A stretch of 64,000 nucleotides of DNA, taken from assembly GCA_033764725.1 (NCBI GenBank), contig JANRIR010000073.1, positions 9,972 to 73,971 of the forward strand, written 5' to 3'. Source of the stretch: Hyphomonadaceae bacterium. Lineage in GTDB: Bacteria; Pseudomonadota; Alphaproteobacteria; Caulobacterales; Aquidulcibacteraceae. Positions 4,452 through 52,171 of this stretch are shown in pieces (position 1 is the stretch's first letter; the number at the start of each line of letters is the position of its first letter). Made by a program: the position numbers and the translations under genes. The notes beneath the pieces are model-generated. The model was given only the letters and a program-made list of their open reading frames with translations. It made no database searches and was not told the DNA's origin.

Positions 4452-4974
4452 CGGCGCGGTCCCTCGCCGCATAAGCCGCGCGCAGCCTCCGCCCGCCCGG
4501 CTCGCCGCGCATGACGCAGGCGGGGCAGCCGCAGGGCGCGCGTTCATGCGCATCTGGGCGATGGCGCCAGCCGACGACGCCGCGCAACGGATAGATCGCC
4601 ATGATCGCGCTGGCCGGCACGGGAGCGTCGAGCAGCACCTCCCAGCCGCGCGGATCGGGGCGCGCCGCAATGTCCGCGATGGCGGCGCTGGCGCGCGCCT
4701 CGGTCCACACCTCATTGTAGCGCGCATAACGCACGATCTGTGCGTCGGGCACGCGCAGACGCACGCCGATCAAGGGTTCGCGGCGCCATTTCAGCACTTC
4801 GCGCGTCCACTGGTGCGTCAGCGTATGGCTCGGCAGAACTGGAAACGCGTAGATCCCCGCGCTGTCGTGCGCGCCGGGAAACAAGGCGCGCCCAGGCCGC
4901 AAACCGACGCGCCGGATCGTCTTCTCCAGACGCGCCGGCGCGATATGGACGAACATCGCCATCAGCTGTCCCAA
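4438..4974 (-). CDS. hypothetical protein wedged between era and recO (C-terminal CGCPAC motif)
   Basis: 178-aa ORF with protein-like composition (..IYAFPVLPSHTLTHQWTREVLKWRREPLIGVRLRVPDAQIVRYARYNEVW..). Its stop overlaps the recO ATG by 14 nt and its candidate starts (4974, 4962, 4956) abut the era stop. I recognise no family. Confidence 0.5.
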   Translation of the reverse strand: MGQLMAMFVHIAPARLEKTIRRVGLRPGRALFPGAHDSAGIYAFPVLPSHTLTHQWTREVLKWRREPLIGVRLRVPDAQIVRYARYNEVWTEARASAAIADIAARPDPRGWEVLLDAPVPASAIMAIYPLRGVVGWRHRPDAHERAPCGCPACVMRGEPGGRRLRAAYAARDRADGLD

Positions 4975-8972: not shown

Positions 8973-11900
8973 TCACATCACCCGCTCGACGCCGCGCGCG
9001 GCCTTCAGCGCGGCGCGCGCCCCCGCCCCGGCCGGCACCAGCCCCGACGTGGCGAGCTCCACCTCGCGGCCGTCCTGCAGGCGCAACACGAGGCGCAGCC
9101 TGCGGGTCTCGGCGCCGCGCGCAGGCTCAAGCTGGGCGATCGTTTCTGCGAGCCCCGCCAGCGAGGCGCCTTCGCGCAGCACGATCTTCACATCGCCCAA
9201 TTGGCGCGCTTCGGCCGCCTCGACCGGCTCGAACGTATCGACCGACAATTTGAGATCGCCGTCGCGCCAGCGCGCGCGCGCGCGGAACACCAAAGGCTTG
9301 CCGACCTGCAACACGTCGCGCGCCGGCGCGAGATGCTCTGGCATCACCATCGCCTCGAAATCGCCGGTCGGATCGGACAGCGACACGAACGCGAGCTGGC
9401 CGCCCGATTGCGCCGGCCGCGTCTGCACCCGGCGCAGCACCGCCGCCATCGCATAGACGCGCGGCTCGGTTTCGCCCTCTTCCAATATGTCGGCGTAGGT
9501 CATGAATTTGCCGCTCGGCGCATCGGCGTAGAACGCCGACAGCGGATGGCCGGAGAGATAGAAGCCGACGCTCTCGCGCTCGTAATCGAGCCGCTCCTGC
9601 GCCGACCAGGCCGGCGCCTTGGGCATCACGGCGCGCACCGCGGGCTCTTCGGCGCCGAACAGGCTCGCCTGCGCGCTGGCGCGCGCCTCCGCCGCCCGCG
9701 CGGCTTCCTGTGCGATCACTTCGGCCGCCGCGAACGCGCGCGCGCGCTCGGGCTCGAGCGCATCGAATGCGCCCGCCTTCGCCAGATTCTCAAGCTGGCG
9801 CCGGTTGACGGTTTTCGCGTCGAGGCGTTCGGCGAAATCGTGCAGGCTTTTGAACGGGCCGCCCCGCGCGCGCTCGGCGGCGAGGCTCTCCATTGCGGCG
9901 AGACCGACATTGCGCACTGCGCCCAGCGCATAGCGCACCGCGAGGCCGTCGCCATGCGCCTCGACCGAGAAATCCGCAAGGCTGGCGTTGATGTCGGGCG
10001 CCAGCACCGTCACGCCGATGCGCCGCGCATCCTGGTGAAACGAGGCGAGCTTGTCGGAGTTCGACAGATCGAGGCTCATCGACGCGGCGACGAACGCCAC
10101 GGGATAATTCGCCTTCAGATACGCCGTCTGGTAGGCGATCACCGCATAGGCGGCGGCGTGCGACTTGTTGAAGCCGTAGCCCGCGAACTCGGCCACCAGA
10201 TCGAAGATGCGCTCGGCGGTGTGCGCCGCGACGCCGCGCTCGACCGCGCCCTGCAGGAAGCGCGACTTCTGCTTGGCCATTTCCTCGGGCTTTTTCTTGC
10301 CCATGGCGCGGCGCAGCAGGTCGGCCTCGCCGAGGCTGTAGCCCGACAAAACCTGGGCGATCTGCATCACCTGTTCCTGATAGATGATGACGCCGTAGGT
10401 CTCTTCGAGAATGGGCTGCAAAAGCGGGTGCAGATAATCGGGCTCCATGCGCCCGTGCTTCACGTCGGCGTAGGAGTCGATGTTCTTCATCGGCCCCGGC
10501 CGATAGAGCGAGATCAGCGCGATGATGTCTTCCAGCGTGGTGGGCTTCACCTTGCGCAGCGTGTCGCGCATGCCCTGGCCTTCCAGCTGGAACACGCCAT
10601 AGGTCGCGCCGGATTGCATGAGCGCGTAGGTCTTTTCGTCGTCCCAGGGAATGCGCGCAAGATCGACATGTTCGCCGCGCGCGCGCAGGAAACCGAGCGC
10701 GCGGTCGATCACGGTCAAGGTCTTGAGGCCGAGGAAATCGAACTTCACAAGCCCCGCCGGCTCCACCCATTTCATATTGAATTGCGTGGCGGGAATGTCG
10801 GAGCGGGGATCGCGATAGAGCGCGACCAGCTCCACCAGCGGGCGGTCGCCGATGACGATGCCGGCGGCGTGCGTCGAGGCGTTGCGGTGCAGGCCCTCCA
10901 ATTGCAGCGCCGTGGCCAACAGCGCGCCGACTTCCGGCTCCTCCTGCGCGGCCTGCTTGAGGCGCGGCTCGATCTCCACCGCCTGCGCCAACGTCACCGG
11001 ATTGGCGGGGTTGGCGGGAACAAGCTTGGCCAGACGATCGACCTGGCCGAACGGCAATTGCATCACGCGCCCGACATCGCGCAGCACCGCGCGCGCCTGC
11101 AGCGTGCCGAACGTGATGATCTGCGCCACCCGGTCGTCGCCATAGCGGCGGCGCACATAATCGATCACCTCGCCGCGCCGCTCCTGGCAGAAATCGATGT
11201 CGAAATCGGGCATCGACACGCGTTCGGGATTGAGAAACCGCTCGAACAGAAGGCCGAAGCGCAGCGGGTCGAGATCGGTGATGGTGAGCGACCAGGCCAC
11301 CAGCGAGCCTGCGCCCGAGCCGCGCCCCGGCCCCACGGGAATGCCTTGGCCTTTCGCCCATTTGATGAAGTCGGCGACGATCAGAAAGTAGCCGGGAAAC
11401 TTCATTTGGATGATGACGGACAATTCGTAGTCCAGCCGCTTCCAATAAGTCTCCTCATCGGCCGCGCGGCCGTCCGGCCCCAACGCTTCGAGGCGCGCGC
11501 GCAGCCCGGCTTCGGCCTGGGCGCGCAATTCGGCCGGCTCGTCGCGGCCTTCGTCGGTGGTGAAGCGCGGCAGGATCGGCGCGCGCGTCGGCGTGCGATA
11601 GGCGCAGCGCGCGGCGATCTCGTGCGTGTTGGCGATCGCCTCGGGCAGATCGGCGAACAGCGCGGCCATGTCCGCGCCCGATTTGAACCAGCATTCCGGC
11701 GTGACCCTGGGACGATCGTCTTCGCCCAGATACGAACTCGCCGCGATGCACATCAGCGCGTCGTGCGCGCCATGGCCCTCGCGCGCCGCAAAGCGCACGT
11801 CGTTGGTCGCCACGATCGGCAGCTCCAGCGCATAAGCGAGCGCCAGCGCGTGCTCTTCGCGCGCCGCCTCGCCGGGCGCGCCGACGCGCTGCAGCTCGAC

Positions 11901-38942: not shown

Positions 38943-39335
38943 CTATCCTGACGGGCTCTGGATGGACCGGATGAGGGAGCGCAGCATTTTGCCAAGTTCA
39001 TCGCTGTCCGACAAAATCTCTCGCACCTGGTCTTCATCGGTGAGTCCTACGCGCGATGTCAGCATAACGTGGGTCTCCAATTCCTTCAGAGAACCATTGG
39101 CGATCCTCAGATATTGCACGAACGTCGCGGTCCCATCACGTCCATACCCTTCCGCGATGTTGGCCGGGATGGAGGCTGCTGCGCGCCGAATTTGGCTGGT
39201 CATGCCGTACGTTTCATCACGCGGGAAACTCTTCGTCAGCACATAGGCCTGCGTGGCGATGCGCATGGCGCTCTGCCAGACCTTGAGGTCGCGATACGAT
39301 TGAACGTCGCTCGACACCTGACCCGCTCGCAGCAA
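38943..39335 (-). CDS. four-helix-bundle protein (23S rRNA intervening-sequence protein / Avd-like family) inserted between nuoA and nuoB
   Basis: ..SYRDLKVWQSAMRIATQAYVLTKSFPRDETYGMTSQIRRAAASIPANIAEGYGR......FVQYLRIANGSLKELETHV is the characteristic pattern of this family. The track start is a TTG at 39335, and a GTG at 39317 is an alternative. G+C is lower than the flanks. Confidence 0.85.
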   Translation of the reverse strand: MLRAGQVSSDVQSYRDLKVWQSAMRIATQAYVLTKSFPRDETYGMTSQIRRAAASIPANIAEGYGRDGTATFVQYLRIANGSLKELETHVMLTSRVGLTDEDQVREILSDSDELGKMLRSLIRSIQSPSG

Positions 39336-39804: not shown

Positions 39805-42165
<2,361 letters not shown>

Positions 42166-42190
42166 TCCAAACACACGCGCATCTGCTCTG

Positions 42191-42225
42191 CGCCCGCCCG
42201 GCCTCGCGCCGGGCGGGTTTTTTTT
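42191..42225 (+). terminator. rho-independent terminator of katG
   Basis: 10-bp GC stem CCCGCCCGGC (42193-42202) / GCCGGGCGGG (42208-42217), a 5-nt loop, then a run of 8 T (42218-42225), about 27 nt after the katG stop. Confidence 0.85.
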
Positions 42226-42231
42226 GGGCGC

Positions 42232-43203
42232 TTACGGCGCGCGCGACGCCGGCGGCGCCGCATGCGTGCGCGCCAAAGCGTACAGCACCGCAGACGGCCG
42301 GCTTGTCGGCGGCAACCGCGCATCCTGTTGGAAACGACCAAGCGCCAGCCGGCTCTGCGCATCCCAGCGCCCGCTCGGCGGCGCTTCCGACAGGTAACCC
42401 AGGCGGGTCAATTCTTCCTGCATCAGCCGATGGCGCTCCGCTGGCGCGGCGCGCTCATAAGCGCCGATCGCTGCAGAAAACGCCTCGGGCGACGCCGTCG
42501 CCGCATCCAGGCACGGGCGATAATCGATGCCGAAGAAATCCGCGAGATGGACGAGCGCGACGGCTTCCAAGACGCGCCGCTGCGCCATCTGCGCGCCCTG
42601 GACGCGGCGGCGATCCATACCGATTTCGGCCCCGTCGGCGCCGTCGTCGATCACCAGGAACGCTTCCTCGCCGCGACGCGGCAACGCCACGCCGACCGCC
42701 GTGGACAGACGAACGCGTCCATTCACCGAAGACGCGAAATCGCCGGCGATGAAATCATAGCTCGTGCGCCGCCCGAGCCCCGCGCGCACGTTTGCGCCCG
42801 CAACCCGCACGCCCATGCCGCGCTCGCCGGTGAACAGATCGTCCTGCGTCCACGCGCCCGACAGCGTCAATCGCCGCGCGCCCGCGCGCTGTTCGTCCAT
42901 GACGATCTGCACTTTCGACGTCTCGAGCCGCGACAGCGCGGTATGCAGCACGAACGATCCGCCCAAACTCAGCCGCCGCTCTTCATTCAAGAGCGGCACC
43001 GTCGCATCTTCGATGTCCCGCACCACCACGCTGACCGGCGCAGCCGGGCTCTGCTCGATGAGGCCGCCAAGGCACCGCAATCCCGCGCTGTGCTCGGTCA
43101 TGACCGGCGACACCGCGGGCGCATCACGCAACAACGCCGCCTGGGGCTCCACGCTGGCGCATGCCGAAGCGCCTAGCGCCATCGCCAATCCGAGATGCTT
43201 CAT
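42232..43203 (-). CDS. outer-membrane lipoprotein, CsgG/HfaB-like N-terminal region plus C-terminal peptidoglycan-binding-like repeat
   Basis: Has a signal peptide with a lipobox (MKHLGLAMALGASAC). ..PVSVVVRDIEDAT..., ..FVLHTALSRLE..VQIVMDEQ and later blocks follow the CsgG pattern from memory. The C-terminus LTRLGYL....GRWDAQSRLALGRFQ resembles PG_binding_1. The family call needs HMM confirmation. Confidence 0.5.
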   Translation of the reverse strand: MKHLGLAMALGASACASVEPQAALLRDAPAVSPVMTEHSAGLRCLGGLIEQSPAAPVSVVVRDIEDATVPLLNEERRLSLGGSFVLHTALSRLETSKVQIVMDEQRAGARRLTLSGAWTQDDLFTGERGMGVRVAGANVRAGLGRRTSYDFIAGDFASSVNGRVRLSTAVGVALPRRGEEAFLVIDDGADGAEIGMDRRRVQGAQMAQRRVLEAVALVHLADFFGIDYRPCLDAATASPEAFSAAIGAYERAAPAERHRLMQEELTRLGYLSEAPPSGRWDAQSRLALGRFQQDARLPPTSRPSAVLYALARTHAAPPASRAP

Positions 43204-43232
43204 CGCGCCGTCTCCCTGTCATTCGGATCAAG

Positions 43233-43257
43233 AACGACGCCTGCGGCGATCTATTCC
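43233..43257 (-). promoter_or_regulatory. ECF-type promoter P1 (GGAATAG-N14-CGTTCT) for the lipoprotein gene
   Basis: The minus strand reads TTTGGAATAGATCGCCGCAGGCGTCGTTCTTGATCC. The spacer between GGAAT and CGTT is exactly 16 nt, and the -10 element ends 29 nt before the ATG at 43203. Verified against the translation of ORF 43161..44033. Confidence 0.6.
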
Positions 43258-43269
43258 AAAGCCGGGAAA

Positions 43270-43294
43270 GGAATAAGCGACGGCGGTCTTCGTT
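43270..43294 (+). promoter_or_regulatory. ECF-type promoter P2 (GGAATAA-N14-CGTTCT) for the 234-aa protein gene
   Basis: The plus strand reads GGAATAAGCGACGGCGGTCTTCGTTCTGGG, with the ATG at 43329 34 nt downstream. It is divergent from P1. Verified against a supplied translation. Confidence 0.6.
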
Positions 43295-43328
43295 CTGGGT
43301 GCGACCGCAACACAACCAAGCGAGACCC

Positions 43329-44033
43329 ATGTTCGCCTTCGCCGCGCCCAAGCCCCGGATCAGCTTCACCTGCAGGCCCGAGGACAAAGGCGTCATCGCC
43401 GAGCCGATCCCGGCCAAGGGCGCCATGCCCGATTGGTTCAAGCGCATCCCGCCGGTCGATGTCGGCGTGCAGAGCCCGAGCAATAACGGGCTGACCATCA
43501 AGCGTTGCCTGCCGTTTCTCGACGCCATGACGCACGGCTGGATCATTCCGCTTGCGGCGTCCGTCCGGCTGGAGGTGTCCAAGGACGGCGCAGAGGTGAA
43601 CGCCGGCTGGGATTTCGACCGGGAGATGGTCAGCTTCCATCCGGACTTTCAGGTGTCGGGCCACCCTTTCGGCCCAGGTCCTGCATGCAAGTTTCACAAT
43701 TTCTGGACGATCCAGACGCCGCCGGGCTGGAGCGTGCTGATCACGCCGCCGCTCAATCGCCCGCATCCGACCTTTGAAATTCTCAGCGGAATCGTCGACA
43801 CCGACACGTACCGCTCGCCGATCCATTTTCCATTCTTCCTCAATGTCGGCGACGGCCTGCACGAGATCGAGAAAGGCGCGCCCATCGCGCAAATCATCCC
43901 GTTCCGCCGCACGCAGATCGCCGCCGACATTCGCGCCGAGACGCCGGAAGAAGCGGCCGAACGCGTGCGCATCCTGCGCAACACGCGCGCCGGCGGCGCC
44001 TGGTACCGCCAGCAGGCGCGGGCGCCGCGCTGA
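43329..44033 (+). CDS. conserved-looking hypothetical protein, no signal peptide
   Basis: 234 aa starting at MFAFAAPKPRISFTCRPEDKG (residue 57 of ORF 43161..44033). Composition is ordinary and rich in His/Trp/Phe (..FHNFWTIQTPPGWSVLITPPLNRP.., ..IVDTDTYRSPIHFPFF..). I could not confidently name a family. Confidence 0.6.
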   Translation: MFAFAAPKPRISFTCRPEDKGVIAEPIPAKGAMPDWFKRIPPVDVGVQSPSNNGLTIKRCLPFLDAMTHGWIIPLAASVRLEVSKDGAEVNAGWDFDREMVSFHPDFQVSGHPFGPGPACKFHNFWTIQTPPGWSVLITPPLNRPHPTFEILSGIVDTDTYRSPIHFPFFLNVGDGLHEIEKGAPIAQIIPFRRTQIAADIRAETPEEAAERVRILRNTRAGGAWYRQQARAPR

Positions 44034-44045
44034 AGCGAACCTCAC

Positions 44046-44079
44046 AAAAAAATCCGGAGCGGCGAGGAGGCCGCTCCGG
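44046..44079 (-). terminator. rho-independent terminator of the (SNSS)18 gene
   Basis: 10-bp perfect stem CCGGAGCGGC (44054-44063) / GCCGCTCCGG (44070-44079) with a 6-nt loop. On the minus strand it is followed by A-TTTTTTT (plus-strand A-run 44046-52). It lies about 25 nt after the stop at 44103. Confidence 0.8.
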
Positions 44080-44102
44080 TGAGAGGACCAAGCCGGCTTC
44101 GC

Positions 44103-44522
44103 TCAGGTCGAGCTGTTCGAAGAAGAATTCGAAGAGCTGTTCGACGAACTGTTCGATGAACTGTTCGAGCTCGAATTCGACGACGAGTTGGAGCTCGAGT
44201 TCGACGAGGAATTCGAGGACGAATTGGAGCTGGAGTTCGAGGAAGAATTCGAGCTCGAGTTCGACGAGGAATTCGACGAGGAATTCGAGGACGAGTTCGA
44301 CGAGGAATTGGAGCTGGAATTCGAGATTCCACGTCCGCCGCGGCGGCGCTCGCGCACCTCTTCGACGACCGCACCCTGTTCGGCGCGCGCGTCGGCCGCG
44401 CGTTCGATCTGCGCCGTCCGCGTCACGGAGGCGACGCCGTCATGGGTGGCGGCCTGCGCCCCCATGGCGGACACGCCCAGCGCCGCAGCGGACGCCGTTG
44501 CGATCCAGGTGAACTTTTTCAT
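44103..44522 (-). CDS. secreted protein with C-terminal (Ser-Asn-Ser-Ser)x18 repeat
   Basis: The start MKKFTWIATASAAALGVSAMGAQA-AT is a Sec signal with an AxA site, preceded by GGAAAGG 7-8 nt upstream. A charged linker of about 57 aa follows, then a 73-residue tail that is a perfect SNSS repeat plus a final T. The track ORF is 44103..44567. Confidence 0.7.
   Translation of the reverse strand: MKKFTWIATASAAALGVSAMGAQAATHDGVASVTRTAQIERAADARAEQGAVVEEVRERRRGGRGISNSSSNSSSNSSSNSSSNSSSNSSSNSSSNSSSNSSSNSSSNSSSNSSSNSSSNSSSNSSSNSSSNSSSNSST
44106..44324 (-). repeat. 12-nt-period coding tandem repeat encoding (SNSS)18
   Basis: The period is imperfect at the DNA level: all six Ser codons and both Asn codons are used. 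The peptide repeat is perfect. The tract contains several GAATTC, GAGCTC and CTCGAG sites. Confidence 0.85.
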
Positions 44523-44573
44523 ATCGAGCCTTTCCCTTTTCCACGCCCGATCGCAAACGTCGGGCATGAGGCA

Positions 44574-44598
44574 AACGCCGCCGCCGAAGTCCTATTCC
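44574..44598 (-). promoter_or_regulatory. ECF-type promoter P3 (GGAATAG-N14-CGTTTG) for the (SNSS)18 gene
   Basis: The minus strand reads GTGGAATAGGACTTCGGCGGCGGCGTTTGCC, with a 16-nt spacer. The ATG at 44522 is 51 nt downstream. Verified against the translation of ORF 44442..44771. Confidence 0.55.
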
Positions 44599-44664
44599 AC
44601 AGCATCAGCCTTAAAGCCCGGCAATGCGCTCTTCGGGCCGGGTCATTTAATTCGCCCACGAACC

Positions 44665-44689
44665 GGAATAAGAAGCGGGCTGCGGCGTT
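44665..44689 (+). promoter_or_regulatory. ECF-type promoter P4 (GGAATAA-N14-CGTTCT) for the porin gene
   Basis: The plus strand reads CCGGAATAAGAAGCGGGCTGCGGCGTTCTGGGG, with the ATG at 44720 30 nt downstream. Verified against the translation of ORF 44442..44771. Confidence 0.6.
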
Positions 44690-44719
44690 CTGGGGATCAA
44701 ACGCCAAGAGGGGATTTGC

Positions 44720-45763
44720 ATGCGTGGGTTGTTTGGGAGCGTGGCGCTCGCCGCGGTGTGGGCGGCGATGACGGGCGACGCGTCGGCCCAAGAGCTTCGC
44801 GCCAACGTCAACGGGGTCGAACTCACCGCCAACGGCGCGATCTCGCTGCAAGCCGGGGCCTATGAGGACCCTGAAACCGGGCGCTCCGACGAAGCCTCCG
44901 AATGGGACGCTTCGTTGATTGTCAATGCGGAATACGTCGCCCAATCGGGTCTCGTTTATGGTTTCCGTGCGGAGGTCGATACGGGCGACCGCGAGGCCGA
45001 GGATCTGCAGCGTGACGAAATTTATGTGTATCTCGCCGGCGGCTTCGGCCGCGTCGAATTGGGCGAGCAGGACGGCCCCGCCGACACCATCTCTCTGCAC
45101 GCGCCGCTTGTAGGCCTCGGCCAGATCCGCGGCGATTTCGTGCGCTATGCCGGAACCGCCGCGCTGATCAGCCCCTTCGACACCCGCGATGCGTTGAAGA
45201 TCCTCTATCTCTCCGCGCCCGTGCGCGGCTTCCGGTTCGGCGTCTCCTATGCGCCGGAACTGGAATCCAACAGCGACGATCCCAATCCGCGCCGGCGCAC
45301 GCGCCAAGAGAATGCGATCGAAACCGCCCTCGCCTACCAGACGACGCTCGGCGATTGGGTCGGCGGCGTGAGCGCGGCCTATGTGCATGGCGAAGCCGAT
45401 CCCGTCACGGAGCGGCAGGATCTTGAATCCTGGAGCATCGGCTCGGAATTCCGCCGCGGCCCCCTCGCCATCGGCGCCGCCTTCGTCAGCCGCGGCGACA
45501 GCAACAGCCTCACGCCCGGCCTCGACGAAGAAGAAATCAACGCCGGGATCGCCTGGCGCGCCGAGCGCTGGGGCGTCGCCCTCTCCGCCTCGGAGACGGA
45601 CTCCACGAACTTCACCAACCGGCTGATCGGCGTGGGCGGCTATTACGAACTGAGCGAGCATTGGGTGCTGCGCGCCGATTTCGTCAGCATCGAAGAGGAG
45701 CCCGTGGGCGCGCCGTCTGCGTCGGGTTCCGTGGCGATCGCTGAAATTTCTTTCAGATTCTGA
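44720..45763 (+). CDS. outer-membrane porin (beta-barrel)
   Basis: Has a signal peptide (..AAMTGDASA-QE), alternating amphipathic strands, acidic loops and a C-terminal aromatic signature (..IAEISFRF). 347 aa. Confidence 0.75.
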   Translation: MRGLFGSVALAAVWAAMTGDASAQELRANVNGVELTANGAISLQAGAYEDPETGRSDEASEWDASLIVNAEYVAQSGLVYGFRAEVDTGDREAEDLQRDEIYVYLAGGFGRVELGEQDGPADTISLHAPLVGLGQIRGDFVRYAGTAALISPFDTRDALKILYLSAPVRGFRFGVSYAPELESNSDDPNPRRRTRQENAIETALAYQTTLGDWVGGVSAAYVHGEADPVTERQDLESWSIGSEFRRGPLAIGAAFVSRGDSNSLTPGLDEEEINAGIAWRAERWGVALSASETDSTNFTNRLIGVGGYYELSEHWVLRADFVSIEEEPVGAPSASGSVAIAEISFRF

Positions 45764-45770
45764 AACGAAG

Positions 45771-45795
45771 GGAATAGGCGCTCTGCAGCGCCGTT
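45771..45795 (+). promoter_or_regulatory. ECF-type promoter P5 (GGAATAG-N14-CGTTCT) for the P-loop/ABC-like pair
   Basis: The plus strand reads GGGAATAGGCGCTCTGCAGCGCCGTTCTCCC, starting 8 nt after the porin stop. The ATG at 45847 is 51 nt downstream. Verified against the translation of ORF 45753..45935. Confidence 0.6.
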
Positions 45796-45846: not shown

Positions 45847-46902
45847 ATGCGCCTCACGCTTCCGCCGGAACGGCTCGCCCGCGCAAAGCGCGCTTTCAGC
45901 ACACGGACGGCGCCCGATCGGGCGCTGCACGCCATCGAGACCGCCGACGTTTCGCCCCGCGCCGGCGATCTGGTTTTGGCGCGCGTGCTCGAGGTCGGCG
46001 CCCATCAGAGGCTCGAACTGACCACCAGCCGCAAGGCGCTGTTGTTTGAAGGCGATGAAATCATTCTCGCCTACGGCAACCGCTACGCGCCGGACCAGTT
46101 CGAAGCCGTGGCGCCGGATGATCTCGGCCCCTGCGATCTTGCCGCCGCCGGCGGCATCGCCGCGCGCGTCATCGCCAAGAACGAGCGCATGGAGGAGCCG
46201 ACGCGCATCCAGCCGATCGGGCTGTTCGTCGATGACGCGGGCAAGGCGCTCAATCTGCGCGGCTTCGCCCTCGCCGCTCCCGAAGCCGCCGCGGCGCCGG
46301 CGATGTTCACCGTCGTCGGCGGCTCGATGAACGCCGGCAAGACCACCACCGCCGCCTCGATCATCAAGGGCCTCACGCGCGCCGGATTGAAGGTCGGCGC
46401 AGCGAAGCTGACCGGCACCGGCGCAGGCAACGATTTCTGGCACATGCGCGACGCCGGCGCTTTCCGTGTTCTCGATTTCACCGATGTCGGCATGGCCACG
46501 ACCTATCGCGCCGATCGCGGCGAGCTGGCGCATGGCGTGCGCACGCTGATCGGCGCGCTGGCGCAGGACGGCGCCGACGCGCTGGTGCTCGAGGTCGCCG
46601 ACGGGCTCTTCCAGGACGAGACCGCGTGGCTCATCGCCTCCGGCCTGTTGAAGCAGCCGCGCAGCGGCTACCTCTATGCCGGCGAAAGCGCCGCCTCGTG
46701 CGCGATGGGCGTGCATTGGCTGCGCCAACACGGCCGCGTGCTGGGACTGAGCGGCCTGGTGTCGCAATCCCCGCTCGCGTGCCGCGAGGCCACGCAAGCC
46801 ACCGGCATGCGCTGCTACACGCGCGAGGCGCTGGCCTCGATGGAGGTCGCAGCAGCGCTCTACGACGCGCTCATGGAGCCCTGCGCGCAAGCGGCGGCAT
46901 GA
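45847..46902 (+). CDS. P-loop NTPase of uncertain family (possibly DUF1611-like)
   Basis: 351 aa. Walker A is VVGGSMNAGKTTTAASIIKGL, followed by KLTGTGAGND, with a Walker-B-like ALVLEVADG. The N-terminal domain of about 150 aa is unassigned. The stop makes an ATGA overlap with the next gene. Confidence 0.6.
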   Translation: MRLTLPPERLARAKRAFSTRTAPDRALHAIETADVSPRAGDLVLARVLEVGAHQRLELTTSRKALLFEGDEIILAYGNRYAPDQFEAVAPDDLGPCDLAAAGGIAARVIAKNERMEEPTRIQPIGLFVDDAGKALNLRGFALAAPEAAAAPAMFTVVGGSMNAGKTTTAASIIKGLTRAGLKVGAAKLTGTGAGNDFWHMRDAGAFRVLDFTDVGMATTYRADRGELAHGVRTLIGALAQDGADALVLEVADGLFQDETAWLIASGLLKQPRSGYLYAGESAASCAMGVHWLRQHGRVLGLSGLVSQSPLACREATQATGMRCYTREALASMEVAAALYDALMEPCAQAAA

Positions 46903-48410
46903 GACCGCGGCTGCTTGCGCCAGGGCGCGGCTGGCCGCTGGCGCGCCTTGGGGTGTTGACGCTTGCCGAAGCGGGGGCGCTGGCGGGCGGCGTCGTTGCG
47001 CTCAAGAGGTTTCTCGACGCCGCCGGCGCCGGCGCAGATCTGCGCGGCCCGAGCCTTATGCTGCTCGCCGTCTCCACCGCCTCCGCTGTCATTACCTGGG
47101 CGCGGGCGGTGACGGCCGAAGACGTCAGCATGGATTACGCCAACGATTTGCGCCGCTTTCTGGCGCGCCACGCTGTAGCGGCGAGCGAAGGCGCACGGCG
47201 ACTTGGCGCTTTGACCGCGCGCATGACGGGCGACGTCAATCCGATGCGCGAATGGGCCTCGATCGGGCTCGGCGAATCCGGCGCAGCGCTCGCCGCCGGC
47301 GTCGGCGCGCTTGCGGCGCTTGGGATGGCGGCAGGCGCAGGCGGGCTCGCCGCAGGCGTGGGACTGCTCGCTGCGTGTGGACTGGTCTGGATAGGACTTG
47401 GGCGCGCGCATCGCCGCGCCCTGCAGCGCTTACGCCAGGCCCGCGGCCGCGTGGCCGCCGTCGCCGGCGACATCGTTCTGGGCGCACGCACCTTGGCGCT
47501 GTTCCACGCGGCGCATCGCGAGCGGACGAGGCTCGATGCGCGCGCTGATGATGTGCGCGCCGCCGCCGTCCGGCGCACAGCGATCGCGAGCCTGGTCGAG
47601 GCGCCTGCGGCCTACGCCGTCGTCGCGACGTTTCTGGCCATGCTGTCGCTGGCGATGCACGCGGATCGCGCGATCGACTGGGCGATGGCGGCGTTCGCGG
47701 GCGGCTTTCTAGGCGCGGCGCTGCGCTCTGGCGCGCGTGCGCGCGATAGTTTCCTTGCAGCGCAACTTGGCGCCGCGCGGTTCGACCGTCTTGCCGCTGA
47801 AGCCGCGCGGGTTCGAACGGATCCGGCGCGTGCGCCGGCGCCGTCGGACGGCGCCATCGCGCTGCGTCTCGGGGGCGGCGATGATGTCGTTCTGCAGCGC
47901 GGCGAGGTCGCTTTCGTCAGCGGCGAGCTTCCGCGCGGCGCGCTTGCGTCTCTGGAATCGCTTGCACGCACGCCAGGCGCGGTGCGATTCGCGGGCGCAC
48001 AGGATGACGAGCGCGGCCTGCGCCGCCGCATCATGCTGGCGGCCCCCAGCGCGCCGCTGCTGCGCGGCTCGTTGCGCCGCAATCTATCGATCGGCCAGCG
48101 CGGACTATCGGACGATGTAATGGCGCAGGCGCTCGCCCTGGTCGGCCTTGCGGACATGGCCGCAGCGCTCGAGCGCCGCATCGATCCGGACGCGCCCAGC
48201 CTCGACGGCTGGACGCAAGCGCGGCTGCGCCTGGCGCGCGCCATCGCGCATGGGCCGTCACTGCTGATCGTCGCGGAGCCGGCGCTGTATTTCGATCCCG
48301 AATTGCCGGCGCTGTTGCGGGCTGCGGCGCAGGCGTCCGAGTGCGGCGTGATCGCCGCCGGCCCAGGCGCCAACGACAGCCGGGATCGGCGCTACACGAT
48401 CGCACTTTAG
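46899..48410 (+). CDS. ABC-exporter-like membrane protein with a degenerate (non-catalytic) nucleotide-binding domain
   Basis: 503 aa starting at MRPRLLAPG (residue 92 of ORF 46626..48410). The N-terminal region of about 300 aa is hydrophobic. In the C-terminal ABC-fold region, Walker A is replaced (GEVAFVSGELPRGALAS), the signature LSGGQ is replaced (LDGWTQARLRLARAI), and the Walker B Asp is replaced (LLIVAEP). Confidence 0.6.
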   Translation: MRPRLLAPGRGWPLARLGVLTLAEAGALAGGVVALKRFLDAAGAGADLRGPSLMLLAVSTASAVITWARAVTAEDVSMDYANDLRRFLARHAVAASEGARRLGALTARMTGDVNPMREWASIGLGESGAALAAGVGALAALGMAAGAGGLAAGVGLLAACGLVWIGLGRAHRRALQRLRQARGRVAAVAGDIVLGARTLALFHAAHRERTRLDARADDVRAAAVRRTAIASLVEAPAAYAVVATFLAMLSLAMHADRAIDWAMAAFAGGFLGAALRSGARARDSFLAAQLGAARFDRLAAEAARVRTDPARAPAPSDGAIALRLGGGDDVVLQRGEVAFVSGELPRGALASLESLARTPGAVRFAGAQDDERGLRRRIMLAAPSAPLLRGSLRRNLSIGQRGLSDDVMAQALALVGLADMAAALERRIDPDAPSLDGWTQARLRLARAIAHGPSLLIVAEPALYFDPELPALLRAAAQASECGVIAAGPGANDSRDRRYTIAL

Positions 48411-48455: not shown

Positions 48456-49181
48456 TCACCGCCAATCGCCGGCGATCAGCGCCGCTTCCGCTTCGGCGTC
48501 GAGCGGCGCCTGCGCATCGAGCCGCGACAAGGCGGCGTCGAGCACGCTTGCGGCGTCGTCGCCCACGGTTTCGTATCCGCCCGCAGTCGCCGGCGCAGCC
48601 GCGGTCAACACTTCGAAGCGCCAACGATCGTCCTGCCGGCACGCGACGCCTGCCGACGCCGACGCGCCGATCTGAACCTCCACCTCGCGGCAATACCGCC
48701 CATCGCCGATGCGGAAGGAGGACGACGCGCGAAACACGCCTGCCCCGTCAAGCGCGCGTTCAGCGCCGCTCGGCGCCTGCTCCAACATGGCGTGCAACGC
48801 GCCGCCGGCCGGCACGGCGGCGGGATCGAGCGCGCCGCCGCGCGGCGCAGCGATCATTCCGCCTGCCGCGCCGACGACGAGCGCTATGCCCGCGGCGATG
48901 GGAACACGCCAGCGGTCGGCGATGCGTTGGGCTGCAAACAGCCGGTCTTGCGGCGCGATCGCCGCATCGCGCACGAGCGCTGCAAGGCGCGGCGCAGGCG
49001 TGTCGAGGTCGGGCGCGGCATAGGCGGCGCGCACGGCTTCGTCCGCCTGACGCAAGGCCTGCAGGCGCGCACGCGCCGCAGCGTCGGTCTCAAGCGCGCG
49101 CTCGAGCGCGGCGCGCTGGTGCGGCGGCAGCGCGCCGTCGAGATAGGCGCTCAATTGCTCGTCGGAAATCTCGTCACTCAT
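48456..49181 (-). CDS. membrane-spanning anti-sigma factor
   Basis: N-terminal anti-sigma domain pattern (EQLSAYLDGALPPHQRAALERAL..D), a single TM helix (VPIAAGIALVVGAAGGMIAA) and a periplasmic domain of about 130 aa. The start overlaps the sigma gene stop by 8 nt. Confidence 0.8.
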   Translation of the reverse strand: MSDEISDEQLSAYLDGALPPHQRAALERALETDAAARARLQALRQADEAVRAAYAAPDLDTPAPRLAALVRDAAIAPQDRLFAAQRIADRWRVPIAAGIALVVGAAGGMIAAPRGGALDPAAVPAGGALHAMLEQAPSGAERALDGAGVFRASSSFRIGDGRYCREVEVQIGASASAGVACRQDDRWRFEVLTAAAPATAGGYETVGDDAASVLDAALSRLDAQAPLDAEAEAALIAGDWR

Positions 49182-49701
49182 GCACCGCGCTCCCCGCCGG
49201 CTGAAGTCTTTGCGCCACCGCCTTGCGCGCGCGCGACAGGCGGCTCATGACGGTGCCGATCGGTATTTTCAAAACCTCAGAAACTTCCTGGTAGCTCATG
49301 CCTTCGATCGCCACGAGCGTGAGGATCACGCGGTGATCGTCGGGCAGCGCATCCATCGCCGCGCGCGTGCGCTTGAGGTCGATTGCGGATTCGACCACGT
49401 CGCGGCCGTCGACGAGCGAGAGATCATACATGTCGTCGATGGCGACGACTTTGCCGCGTCGGCTGCGCGCGCGCACCTCGTCGATCCAGGCGTTGTAGGC
49501 GATGCGCAGCACCCAAGGCTCCATCCTGGAGCCTGGCGTCCAGCGATGCAGATTGCCGATCGCGCGCTCAAGCGCGATCTGCGCCAAATCCTCGCCGTCT
49601 TCGCGTGAACCGGTCATGGCGTAGCAAAACCGCTGCAGGCGAGGGATCGCCTGGAGAAGCAACGCCTTTGGGGAATCCGGTTCATCGCGGCTTTGCCTCA
49701 T
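49174..49701 (-). CDS. ECF-family RNA polymerase sigma factor
   Basis: Has sigma-70 region 2 (..EDGEDLAQIALERAIGNLHRW......PWVLRIAYNAWIDEVR) and region 4 (..LVAIEGMSYQEVSEVLKIPIGTVMSRLSRARK). The track ORF starts at ATG 49716. I prefer ATG 49701 (MRQSRDE, with GGGGAG 7 nt upstream) because the -10 of promoter P6 abuts 49716. Confidence 0.88.
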   Translation of the reverse strand: MRQSRDEPDSPKALLLQAIPRLQRFCYAMTGSREDGEDLAQIALERAIGNLHRWTPGSRMEPWVLRIAYNAWIDEVRARSRRGKVVAIDDMYDLSLVDGRDVVESAIDLKRTRAAMDALPDDHRVILTLVAIEGMSYQEVSEVLKIPIGTVMSRLSRARKAVAQRLQPAGSAVHE

Positions 49702-49716
49702 AAGATCGCTCCCCAT

Positions 49717-49741
49717 AACGCCGCGATGACGGTTTTATTCC
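49717..49741 (-). promoter_or_regulatory. ECF-type promoter P6 (GGAATAA-N14-CGTTAT), putative autoregulatory promoter of the sigma/anti-sigma operon
   Basis: The minus strand reads TCCGGAATAAAACCGTCATCGCGGCGTTATGGGGAGC, with a 16-nt spacer. This stretch is not covered by any supplied translation, so it rests on my reading of the raw sequence lines. Confidence 0.5.
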
Positions 49742-49769: not shown

Positions 49770-49794
49770 GGAATAGGACGATTGCTTCAACGTT
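49770..49794 (+). promoter_or_regulatory. ECF-type promoter P7 (GGAATAG-N14-CGTTCT) for the S8 protease operon
   Basis: The plus strand reads ATGGAATAGGACGATTGCTTCAACGTTCTCTAACC, with the ATG at 49833 38 nt downstream. It is divergent from P6, with 28 nt between the two -35 elements. Verified against the translation of ORF 49760..49975. Confidence 0.6.
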
Positions 49795-49832: not shown

Positions 49833-51506
49833 ATGCGACGCGCCTCGACCAGCACCCTCCTTGCGGCCACCGCCGGCTTCGCCCTGCTTTGGGGCGGATA
49901 TGCGCCCGGCGTCGGCCAAGAGCCCTCCGGCGCTGCGTTCGCGCAGGAGGCGCCGGACGACGACCCCGACGATGACGCCGATGACGACGATGACCTCGGC
50001 AGCGACGGCGCAGGCGAAGACGATCCCGGCAATGACGGCATCGACGACGCTGGGGGCGACGAGGCTGGGGGCGACGACGTTGGCGGCGATGACGCGGGCG
50101 GCGACGACGCGGGCGGCGATGACGCCGGCGCTGACGATGCGGGCGACGACGGCGCCGGCGGCGATGACGACGGACCCGGCGGAGACGATGGCCCAGGCGG
50201 CGATGATGATGGGCCCGGCGGGGACGATGACGGCTCCGGCGGCGCGCCTGGCAGCGATGACGACGATGGGCCGGGCGGCGATGACGACGACGCGCCCGGA
50301 TCGGGCGGCGGTCGCGACGATGACGACGACGACCCGCCTGGCGGCTCGGGCGTACGCGGCGTCGACGCCGACGGCGGCCAGCGCATTCGCGACGGCGACC
50401 GCGACGTCGCCGGACCGAGCGCGTTGCCTGACGGCGTCGAGGTCGATTTCGAAGGCTATTGGGTGAAGGCCGGCGAAGTGCTGGCGCTGGAGGCCGATCC
50501 CACCTCGCTCGAGTTCGCGCGTGCGCTGGGCTTCGAGGTGATCGAACGCCACCGCTTGACGACGCTCGGCCTGTCGATCGTGGAGCTGCGCGTGCCGCGG
50601 GGACAGCAGACGCGCGCCGCGCTCGAAACGCTGCAAAACGGCGACCCGGACACCGCCTACGATTTTAACCACATCTACACCGCAACCCAGAGCGGGCGCC
50701 CCGCTCCGGGCGGCGCGCGCCGACCTGCCGCGTCCGCAACGACGCCGCCGGCGGTGCGCGCCGGCGCCGTCGGCATTGTCGACACGCGCATTGACGCCGC
50801 GCATCCGAGTTTGCGCCAGGCGCGCATCGTGCAGTCCGACTTCGTCAACCGCACCGTTGCGCCGAACGATCACGGCACTGCGGTCGCGTCGGTGATCGTC
50901 GGCGAAGCGGCGTCGCGATCGACGGCGCTGTCGGTGTACGCCGCGGCCGTGGTCGATCGCTCCGGCGTGCGCGGGGCGGAACTCGCCTCCGCCGACCGTC
51001 TCGTGCGCGCGCTTGATTGGATCGCGCAGAACAATGTCGCGGTGGCCAATGTCAGCCTCGCGGGTCCGCCGAACCGTTTGGTGGAGGACGCCGTGCGGCG
51101 TGCGCAGGCGCGCGGCATGCTGATTGTCGCCGCCGTCGGCAATGACGGGCCGGCCGCGCCGCCGCTCTATCCCGCCGCCTATGACGGCGTCGTCGGCGTG
51201 ACGGCGGTGGACGACAACGGCGTCGTCTATCGGCGTGCAGGGCGCGGCGAGCATGTCGATTTCGCCGCCCGAGGCGTCGGCGTGCAGGTGGCGGCACCGG
51301 CGGGGCAGAGCATGGAGGTCAGCGGCACGTCCTACGCGGCGCCTTCGGTTGCGGCGGCGCTGGCGGAACTGCACACGCGGATGGACGCCGCCTCCGCCGC
51401 GGCGGCGGTGGCGGCGCTGCAGCAGCGCGCGCGCGACGCCGGCGACCGCGGACGCGATCCGGTCTATGGCGACGGCGTGGTGCCGACGGGTCGGGCGACG
51501 CCATGA
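49833..51506 (+). CDS. secreted S8 (subtilisin-like) serine peptidase with a poly-Asp/Gly N-terminal tract of about 150 residues
   Basis: Has a signal peptide (..AAFA-QE). The catalytic triad contexts are GIVDTRID (Asp), NDHGTAVASV (His) and SGTSYAAPSVAA (Ser), with the oxyanion Asn in AAVGNDG. 557 aa. Confidence 0.85.
   Translation: MRRASTSTLLAATAGFALLWGGYAPGVGQEPSGAAFAQEAPDDDPDDDADDDDDLGSDGAGEDDPGNDGIDDAGGDEAGGDDVGGDDAGGDDAGGDDAGADDAGDDGAGGDDDGPGGDDGPGGDDDGPGGDDDGSGGAPGSDDDDGPGGDDDDAPGSGGGRDDDDDDPPGGSGVRGVDADGGQRIRDGDRDVAGPSALPDGVEVDFEGYWVKAGEVLALEADPTSLEFARALGFEVIERHRLTTLGLSIVELRVPRGQQTRAALETLQNGDPDTAYDFNHIYTATQSGRPAPGGARRPAASATTPPAVRAGAVGIVDTRIDAAHPSLRQARIVQSDFVNRTVAPNDHGTAVASVIVGEAASRSTALSVYAAAVVDRSGVRGAELASADRLVRALDWIAQNNVAVANVSLAGPPNRLVEDAVRRAQARGMLIVAAVGNDGPAAPPLYPAAYDGVVGVTAVDDNGVVYRRAGRGEHVDFAARGVGVQVAAPAGQSMEVSGTSYAAPSVAAALAELHTRMDAASAAAAVAALQQRARDAGDRGRDPVYGDGVVPTGRATP
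49953..50402 (+). repeat. imperfect GGCGGCGAYGAC-type coding repeat encoding the acidic (GGDD/GPGGDDD)n tract
   Basis: Residues about 41-190 read PDDDPDDDADDDDD..GGDDAGGDDAGGDDAGADDAGDDGAGGDDDGPGGDDGPGGDDDGPGG..RDDDDDDPPGG. The antisense frames give poly-Ser/Pro shadow ORFs. Confidence 0.8.
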
Positions 51507-52171
51507 TGCGCCGCGCCTTTCTCGCTTTCGCGCTCGCGTGCGGTCTCGTTGGCGCCGCGGACGCCGCGCCGCTGCCGCGCTACGCCGCCGGCCAGGCCTT
51601 CATCTTCGACAACGGCCGCGTCGAACTGGTTCGCGAGGTCAGAAACGATCGCGTCGTCTGGTCGGCGCGCAGCGGTCGGCCGTACGTACGCAGCGCCAAT
51701 CCGGTCGTGCCCATTCTGGAATGGTCGTTTCGCGGCCAGACGGGACGGCGCACGGTGCTCGGCGATCCCGATCGCCTCTGGCCGCTGCGCGCCGGGCGAC
51801 GCGTCGAGTTTCGCACGTTGAACGTCGCCACCGATGCCGACGAGCGCGCGCGACGCAGCATCCATTTGTGGAGCTGCGCTGCGCGCACGCCGGTGACGCT
51901 CGATGTCCCGGCCGGACGATTCACCGCCATCCCGGTCGTGTGTGATCGCTTCAGCCACAATTCGATGCGCGTGCTGGAACGGCTGACATGGCACTATTCT
52001 GAAGAAGTCGGGCACTATATCCGGCGCGAGGCGCGCGACATGAGCGACGGCAGCGTCGAAACCTACGCGCTGTTCGCCACGCTGCCGCCGCACGCCGCCA
52101 ACGACGTCCGCATCGAAACGCTGGCGCGGCAGGCGCGCGCGGCCTCCGCCGGCTCGCGGCCTCAGCGCTGA
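51503..52171 (+). CDS. secreted hypothetical protein co-transcribed with the S8 peptidase
   Basis: 222 aa with a signal peptide (MMRRAFLAFALACGLVGAADA-AP). Its ATG makes an ATGA overlap with the protease stop. I recognise no family. Confidence 0.6.
   Translation: MMRRAFLAFALACGLVGAADAAPLPRYAAGQAFIFDNGRVELVREVRNDRVVWSARSGRPYVRSANPVVPILEWSFRGQTGRRTVLGDPDRLWPLRAGRRVEFRTLNVATDADERARRSIHLWSCAARTPVTLDVPAGRFTAIPVVCDRFSHNSMRVLERLTWHYSEEVGHYIRREARDMSDGSVETYALFATLPPHAANDVRIETLARQARAASAGSRPQR

Follow-up and report, generated by a model that had tools for sequence, protein, structure and literature searches.

A predicted CsgG-fold, peptidoglycan-binding lipoprotein in a conserved ECF sigma/subtilase regulon, and a neighboring (SNSS)18 protein that is unlikely to be its dedicated cargo

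The DNA considered here is a 64,000-nucleotide stretch from a Hyphomonadaceae bacterium (assembly GCA_033764725.1, contig JANRIR010000073.1, positions 9,972 to 73,971), referred to below as the window, in which a 323-aa lipoprotein and a secreted protein with 18 SNSS repeats are encoded about 900 bp apart. A sequence-only reading of the window had taken the lipoprotein for a CsgG-like channel and the repeat protein for its cargo. The best joint explanation of the results, to which a probability of about 0.6 is given, is that the former is a CsgG-fold, peptidoglycan-binding lipoprotein in a conserved regulon built around a sigma factor of the extracytoplasmic function (ECF) type and a subtilase, and that the repeat protein belongs to a separate unit with a DUF6065 protein and is not the dedicated cargo of the lipoprotein.

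The lipoprotein is laid out as follows:
42232..43203, minus strand: gene of the 323-aa lipoprotein (open reading frame, ORF)
residues 1-15: signal peptide and lipobox
42469..43158, about residues 16-245: predicted CsgG-like fold domain (AlphaFold2 model, Foldseek)
42265..42444, about residues 254-313: PG_binding_1 domain (Pfam match at residues 259-301)

The protein starts with MKHLGLAMALGASAC, and its lipobox, LGASAC, conforms to the usual pattern, as had been recognized from the sequence. A lipobox is present in 22 of the 28 complete relatives; the six closest relatives have a type-I signal peptide instead. The identical sequence has been deposited as a "peptidoglycan-binding domain-containing protein" from a Hyphomonadaceae metagenome-assembled genome. 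The sole Pfam match of the lipoprotein at E ≤ 0.1 is to PG_binding_1 (PF01471; E 9e-8, 32.6 bits versus a cut-off of 23). This domain was matched in all 29 family members. The peptidoglycan-binding-like repeat noted earlier at the C-terminus is one domain and not a repeat. Sequence searches of the PDB, with the lipoprotein alone and with its profile, matched only peptidoglycan-binding domains. The family is small, with 30 clusters among 5.8 billion proteins and 42 loci across 185,579 species genomes, and its alignment contains the invariant motifs TEHS..L.CLG, RLS, GAWTQDD, D.IAGDF and QMAQRR together with two cysteines, C44 and C231, which are invariant family-wide and may form a disulfide. 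At L003 and L047 (7297..8981 and 9367..11325), in a Parvularculaceae genome, the end of an OmpR-type response-regulator gene is overlapped by the lipoprotein gene, after which comes the gene of a 652-aa DUF5666 repeat protein; an Asp_Arg_Hydrox gene lies in the same cluster.

The likeness to CsgG is carried by the structure prediction, which the sequence-only reading had proposed as a check. AlphaFold2 modeled the monomer with a predicted local distance difference test score (pLDDT) of 81, with residues 123-145 disordered, and the top ten matches of this model in the PDB, as found by Foldseek, were all CsgG chains (4uv2, 4uv3), with a probability of 1.00, E-values from 3.6e-4 to 2.2e-3, and 224-241 aligned columns for chains of 216-248 residues. 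The next matches, HpaA (probability 0.23) and PelC (5t11; probability 0.94, E 0.034, 135 columns), were about 100-fold weaker, and neither PqiC nor LptE was among the PDB matches at E < 1. Model and matches together assign a CsgG fold to the predicted periplasmic alpha/beta domain, and the sequence blocks that had been said to follow the CsgG/HfaB pattern lie at positions that agree with the full-length fold match; a collinear profile alignment with CsgG, which loses its significance without the signal peptide, puts them at the same places.

CsgG/HfaB-type channels are nonameric rings in which the amphipathic beta-hairpins TM1 and TM2 build a 36-strand barrel. In the lipoprotein family, column hydrophobicity alternates strictly, and family-wide, at residues 130-145 and 181-197; in the collinear alignment with CsgG, which is not significant without the signal peptide, these segments fall at TM1 and TM2, and the lengths of the insertions match. 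The same alignment gives the lipoprotein a CsgG-like order of elements, namely a first strand, a loop, a helix and the two hairpin insertions. The first hairpin has low confidence in the AlphaFold2 model of the lipoprotein; in the CsgG pre-pore, the first hairpin is disordered. The family appears to have more than the bare alpha/beta core of the ring or plug lipoproteins PelC, PqiC and LptE, in which the two hairpin insertions are missing and whose length is about 130-190 residues.

Among the NCBIfam models, HfaB, the secretion lipoprotein of the Caulobacter holdfast anchor, was the only one to recur, matching 22 of the 29 members over residues ~28-100 (best member E 3.8e-4), although with scores of just 12-17 bits against a cut-off of 300. 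The match was still found for 4 of 10 mature domains from which the signal peptide had been removed (E 0.002-0.11), always in the same register. The host of the window is itself a Hyphomonadaceae relative of holdfast-forming bacteria; unlike in the HfaB setting, the scans of the regulon proteins turned up neither HfaA nor HfaD. On the modeled fold, the lipoprotein is best placed at a distance within the CsgG-fold superfamily, with CsgG/HfaB as its nearest relatives, and outside the curated family.

When set beside CsgG of E. coli (PDB 4uv2, 4uv3, 3x2r), which is likewise an outer-membrane lipoprotein and is the best fold match over nearly the whole chain, several differences stand out. From its first helix to its central strand, the lipoprotein is shorter by about 30 residues, and it has the additional C-terminal PG_binding_1 domain and the invariant C44/C231 pair, for which CsgG has no equivalent. 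The loop at the position of the CsgG constriction is conserved but charged, reading P-x-R-F/N-E-E-R-R-L-S-x-G-G (P70, R/L72, F/N73, E74, E/D75, R76, R77, L78, S79, G81 and G82), and the Tyr/Asn/Phe stack of the CsgG constriction is missing from the family. Finally, the gene sits in an ECF-sigma/subtilase regulon and is not accompanied by csgE, csgF, csgA or csgB.

Membership in this regulon is indicated by a promoter motif, GGAATAR-N14-CGTT, which occurs seven times in the window versus 0.02 times expected by chance, all within 43.2-49.8 kb. It precedes the lipoprotein gene, the DUF6065 gene, the repeat gene, the porin gene, the P-loop gene, the ECF sigma gene and the S8 protease operon, bearing out the earlier statement that the lipoprotein and the repeat protein have the same motif and that the porin, the protease and the pseudo-ABC (ATP-binding cassette) pair are in the same regulon. 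The genes and sites are:
43233..43257, minus strand: ECF-type promoter motif GGAATAG-N14-CGTT before the lipoprotein gene, 29 nt 5' of the start codon
43270..43294, plus strand: ECF-type promoter motif before the DUF6065 gene
43329..44033, plus strand: DUF6065 gene, 234 aa (Pfam DUF6065, AlphaFold2, Foldseek)
44054..44079, minus strand: intrinsic-terminator-like hairpin and T-run, directly 3' of the repeat gene and facing the end of the DUF6065 gene
44103..44522, minus strand: (SNSS)18 repeat gene, Sec-signal protein of 139 aa (ORF)
44574..44598, minus strand: ECF-type promoter motif before the repeat gene
44665..44689, plus strand: ECF-type promoter motif before the porin gene
44720..45763, plus strand: Porin_4 outer-membrane porin, 347 aa (Pfam E 9.5e-29)
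45771..45795, plus strand: ECF-type promoter motif before the P-loop/ABC-like operon
45847..46902, plus strand: P-loop protein, 351 aa (weak MobB/DUF1611-like matches)
46899..48410, plus strand: ABC-exporter-like membrane protein (ABC_membrane E 2e-11; ABC_tran only E 0.057)
48456..49181, minus strand: anti-sigma factor with zf-HC2, one membrane span and a periplasmic domain (hidden Markov model, HMM, scans)
49174..49716, minus strand: ECF sigma factor, preceded by a promoter motif of its own (49717..49741)
49770..49794, plus strand: ECF-type promoter motif before the S8 protease operon
49833..51506, plus strand: secreted subtilase (S8), 557 aa (Pfam S8 E 1.5e-27)
51503..52171, plus strand: signal-peptide protein of 222 aa without a family match, co-transcribed with the S8 protease

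An Rfam search of 41500..45500 returned no RNA family. The same motif was found before the sigma, lipoprotein, P-loop and S8 genes at distant loci in Alpha- and Gammaproteobacteria. The company kept by the lipoprotein gene was counted at the 23 of its loci that are well flanked (at least 5 kb on both sides), with the following numbers of loci for each neighbor:
S8 protease: 20
ECF sigma factor: 20
anti-sigma factor: 18
P-loop protein: 15
ABC-like protein: 13
222-aa protein: 10
porin: 4
DUF6065: 1
S/N-repeat ORF: 1

The lipoprotein thus belongs to the core of an autoregulated and conserved ECF regulon, which is found in Alpha-, Beta- and Gammaproteobacteria and contains the ECF sigma factor, its anti-sigma factor, a secreted subtilase with a poly-acidic tract and, usually, the P-loop protein and the degenerate ABC exporter.

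The relationship was also examined from the other side, at 84 DUF6065 loci, 31 of which are well flanked (4 kb or more on each side). In 71 of the 84, DUF6065 has an S/N-repeat ORF next to it. Within the well-flanked set, the neighbors are:
S/N-repeat ORF: 30
S8 protease, sigma and anti-sigma factor: 19 each
lipoprotein: 1

Because the lipoprotein and the repeat protein each occur mostly without the other (1 of 23 and 1 of 31 well-flanked loci), the repeat protein does not behave as the dedicated cargo of the lipoprotein family, and this role is unlikely for it. DUF6065 and the (NSSS)n protein form a separate two-gene unit that is widespread in Alphaproteobacteria and also attaches to the sigma/subtilase core, and the common ground of the lipoprotein and the repeat gene is this sigma/anti-sigma/subtilase core. 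The S8 protease, the sigma and anti-sigma factors and the P-loop/ABC pair are the conserved partners of the lipoprotein; the view of the protease and the ABC pair as accessories of cargo export is not upheld. In the literature searched, nothing specific was found on DUF6065, on SNSS repeats or on ECF/S8/CsgG-like contexts, and it seems that neither the ECF/subtilase regulon nor the DUF6065-(NSSS)n pair has been described.

The DUF6065 gene fills much of the 900 bp between the lipoprotein and repeat genes, an interval whose gene had gone unmentioned. Its product matches DUF6065 (PF19541) with E 8e-12 and 45.6 bits versus a gathering score of 26.6, and has no signal peptide. The AlphaFold2 model (pLDDT 85) is a beta-barrel like those of dUTPases and dCTP deaminases, with 34 such Foldseek matches at E < 1e-3. 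Asp/Asn hydroxylase activity, considered in view of the Asp_Arg_Hydrox gene at locus L003, was rejected for this dUTPase-like fold. The repeat gene always has DUF6065 beside it, and DUF6065 is by far the commoner, with at least 1426 clusters found versus the 30 of the lipoprotein. At a Gemmobacter locus (L049), the DUF6065/(NSSS)n pair has just upstream of it a 104-aa ORF (4599..4913, plus strand) that contains long runs of poly-Asp, and no subtilase, sigma or lipoprotein gene lies within 5 kb.

The repeat protein has the design described for it from the sequence, all of it confirmed in the ORF at 44103..44522: the Sec signal (MKKFTWIATASAAALGVSAMGAQA) is followed by a charged linker of 42 aa and then, over residues 67-138, by (SNSS)18, which ends in NSST. 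The 18 identical peptide units are encoded by 15 different DNA versions that use six Ser codons, and perfect periodicity is confined to this one of the six frames, indicating that the SNSS peptide repeat itself is under selection. The stop codon is followed by the hairpin and T-run (44079..44054). Acidic antisense ORFs of the ELEF/DEEF type opposite the repeat were considered as the real genes and rejected, since the S/N frame alone is perfectly periodic and has a signal peptide, a promoter and a terminator. Public gene calls have an antisense acidic frame (LELELDELLE...) in place of the repeat gene at L001 (6512..6997, minus strand), L051 (4333..4887, minus strand) and L052 (5815..6150, plus strand); because gene calls sometimes take the antisense frame, protein databases probably under-represent the (NSSS)n family.

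Orthologues of the repeat gene were found at loci L001, L007, L008 and L052 and at about 70 DUF6065 loci, and 46 of 63 related repeat genes have the ECF motif within 160 bp upstream. These relatives have a common design, in which a Sec signal and a linker that varies are followed by (NSSS)n or (SN)n and, in many cases, by an acidic or basic tail. Among the repeat proteins of L049-L132, many end in an acidic (DDDD, DSDGDDD) or basic (RRWR, KYRR) tail, some have SN dipeptide runs in place of NSSS, and a few have two repeat blocks with a conserved segment between them (…RGDTAVHGFFRGWENGMNRAA…). Pfam gave only a sub-threshold DUF4148 match, over the signal peptide, and no curlin-repeat or HfaA-type match. 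Like the serine-rich repeat adhesins and SD-repeat MSCRAMMs of Gram-positive bacteria, the protein is a Ser-rich, low-complexity, exported polypeptide, and the ClfA and Sdr models gave weak, composition-driven matches (15-20 bits versus cut-offs of at least 999). Unlike them, it is only 139 aa long, has no ligand-binding domain, LPXTG motif or accessory Sec system, is built of a perfect NSSS unit, and occurs in a Gram-negative host under ECF-sigma control and paired with DUF6065.

As for the other partners, the S8 protease has an ordinary subtilisin-type catalytic domain, whose closest models (mycosin, QhpE and PatA) all score below their cut-offs, and a long Asp/Gly-rich acidic tract after the signal peptide. 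A tract at this position passes a simple acidity filter in 13 of the 20 S8 genes of the well-flanked lipoprotein loci, and it is also present in L050, the single S8 protein read from a DUF6065 locus. The tracts of the S8 genes of L001-L048 and L050 vary in composition (poly-D, D/G, D/F, D/E/I), and it seems that charge is conserved rather than sequence. The P-loop protein has no relative in PDB sequence searches. The ABC-exporter-like protein, with weak CydD/CydC-like matches, probably starts at ATG 46899, overlapping the stop of the P-loop gene and translationally coupled to it; its nucleotide-binding domain, as read by eye from the translation, is degenerate in Walker A (SGELPRGALAS) and in the signature (LDGWTQ) and has lost the Walker B aspartate.

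Several results weigh against the preferred explanation. The Pfam model CsgG (PF03783) did not match the window lipoprotein at E ≤ 0.1, nor any of the 29 members at E ≤ 10, and HfaB scored 12.9 bits on the window lipoprotein against its cut-off of 300; among the HMM searches that the sequence-only reading had called for, only that for PG_binding_1 was therefore significant, and the CsgG/HfaB-pattern blocks have no curated HMM behind them. Searches of the lipoprotein family against enterobacterial CsgG with hmmsearch gave 0-4 bits in either direction. A collinear hhalign alignment of the two over 207 columns scored 35 (E 2e-4), above the maximum of 19.6 in 20 column shuffles, but fell to 18.6, within the shuffle range, when the signal peptide and lipobox columns were removed; as the signal came mostly from these columns, the score was discounted as evidence of homology. 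The CsgG profile used was shallow (effective number of sequences 1.4), the E. coli CsgG search having listed only relatives of more than 83% identity. A search of representative proteins with the full-length alignment as query found no bridge to CsgG and was swamped by PG_binding_1 repeat proteins, the N-terminal domain alone being a better query than the alignment used. The putative membrane strands are short, about 5-7 residues, and 6 of the 28 complete relatives lack the lipid anchor. In addition, a PqiC-like lipoprotein also reaches CsgG at about E 4e-4 through the alpha/beta core common to CsgG, PelC, PqiC and LptE (PMC13631591), so the Foldseek E-value alone is not specific for a CsgG-type pore; what singles out CsgG here is the near-full-length coverage and the exclusively CsgG top ranking. 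Lastly, the use of one sigma factor for the lipoprotein and the repeat gene makes a local functional link between them possible.

Taking both sides together, pore formation by the family is plausible on the modeled fold, and the odds that the lipoprotein is a true pore are put somewhat short of even. In the preferred explanation, the lipoprotein would assemble as a peptidoglycan-tethered ring on the inner side of the outer membrane, where its two amphipathic hairpins may form a pore, and it would serve the envelope function of the regulon, either in export or in signaling to the anti-sigma/protease step. The (SNSS)18 protein is taken as a real Sec-exported product under the same sigma factor, and this genome has the two accessory sets side by side.

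The alternative that survives best, although it is unlikely, is that the lipoprotein forms no pore. As a periplasmic ring or sensor tethered to peptidoglycan, it would modulate the anti-sigma factor or hold the subtilase in position, by analogy with RseB/MucB-type or lipoprotein co-regulators of ECF sigma factors. In 14 of 24 loci, the lipoprotein gene comes immediately after the anti-sigma gene and on the same strand, and the overlap with the response-regulator gene at L003/L047 would fit a regulatory role, as would the apparent dispensability of the lipid anchor in the six relatives. PelC, PqiC and LptE, moreover, are non-pore lipoproteins with the same alpha/beta core (PMC13631591). However, the two insertions with alternating hydrophobicity would match the pore hairpins of CsgG and are absent from PelC/PqiC-type rings, the best fold matches span almost the whole CsgG chain, and no direct evidence ties the lipoprotein to the anti-sigma factor.

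An improbable, more ambitious reading extends the preferred one by making both accessory sets parts of one widely distributed and so far undescribed envelope module, whose core would be the ECF sigma/anti-sigma pair driving a secreted subtilase with a poly-acidic leader. The first set would consist of a peptidoglycan-anchored CsgG-fold pore with conserved Arg/Glu residues lining the constriction, the P-loop protein and the degenerate ABC exporter of the inner membrane, and the second of the dUTPase-fold protein and the Sec-exported, perfectly repeated (NSSS)n polypeptide. The CsgG-like protein would then be a new peptide-diffusion channel, threading unfolded low-complexity polypeptides to the surface, namely the protease's poly-Asp leader and, wherever it occurs, the (NSSS)n protein.

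The original proposal, in which a CsgG-type nonameric channel exports the unfolded (SNSS)18 protein to build a surface fiber or matrix, helped by the porin, the S8 protease and the ABC pair, has become very improbable. It is consistent with the CsgG-like fold, with the 900-bp distance and common sigma-dependent promoter motif of the two genes, with a Sec-exported candidate that should be unfolded and polar, and with the co-occurrence of both genes in four species (L001, L007, L008 and L052). Nevertheless, the repeat gene is absent from 22 of the 23 well-flanked lipoprotein loci and the lipoprotein from 30 of the 31 well-flanked DUF6065/repeat loci, so the co-occurrence with Ser/Asn-repeat genes that this proposal had led one to look for is negative in both directions. 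Even in three of the four species with both genes (L001, L008 and L052), the signal peptide of the CsgG-like protein is of type I and the lipobox Cys is missing, and the lipid anchor is reported to be essential for membrane insertion of CsgG (PMC13397529). Moreover, Pfam and NCBIfam scans of the regulon proteins found no CsgE, CsgF, CsgA/B or HfaA/D match, an absence already remarked upon in the sequence-only reading.

Least probable of all is a PelC-like funnel, in which a periplasmic ring of the lipoprotein sits beneath the co-regulated Porin_4 protein and leads a substrate through it: among the fold matches, PelC (5t11) is the one further ring lipoprotein, and it is reported to work with the PelB porin (PMC13631591), and the nearby porin has the same promoter motif, but the porin is rare at the lipoprotein loci and the PelC match covers just 135 columns and is about 100-fold weaker than those to CsgG.

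Two further observations concern other parts of the window. The gene of a four-helix-bundle protein (38943..39335, minus strand; TIGR02436, Avd-like; NF008911, 167 bits) lies between nuoA and nuoB of the NADH dehydrogenase operon, with a dip of the GC content to about 0.60-0.62 around it. Between 20000 and 28000, AT skew is strongly positive (0.16-0.29), and the long minus-strand ORFs found there, downstream of nuoA-C, are probably the membrane subunits of the nuo operon.

The CsgG-type channels are, to our knowledge, the sole energy-independent pores for peptide diffusion in the outer membrane; they also serve as sequencing nanopores. While the fold family itself is known, the fusion of a remote CsgG-like protein to PG_binding_1 and its genomic setting are new. 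So is the unannotated family of secreted, perfectly repeated (NSSS)n proteins, paired with DUF6065 and under ECF control. All of these genes together provide a defined gene set for testing. A remote CsgG branch with a peptidoglycan anchor, a charged equivalent of the constriction loop and membership in a stress-sigma/subtilase regulon would widen the known roles of the fold.

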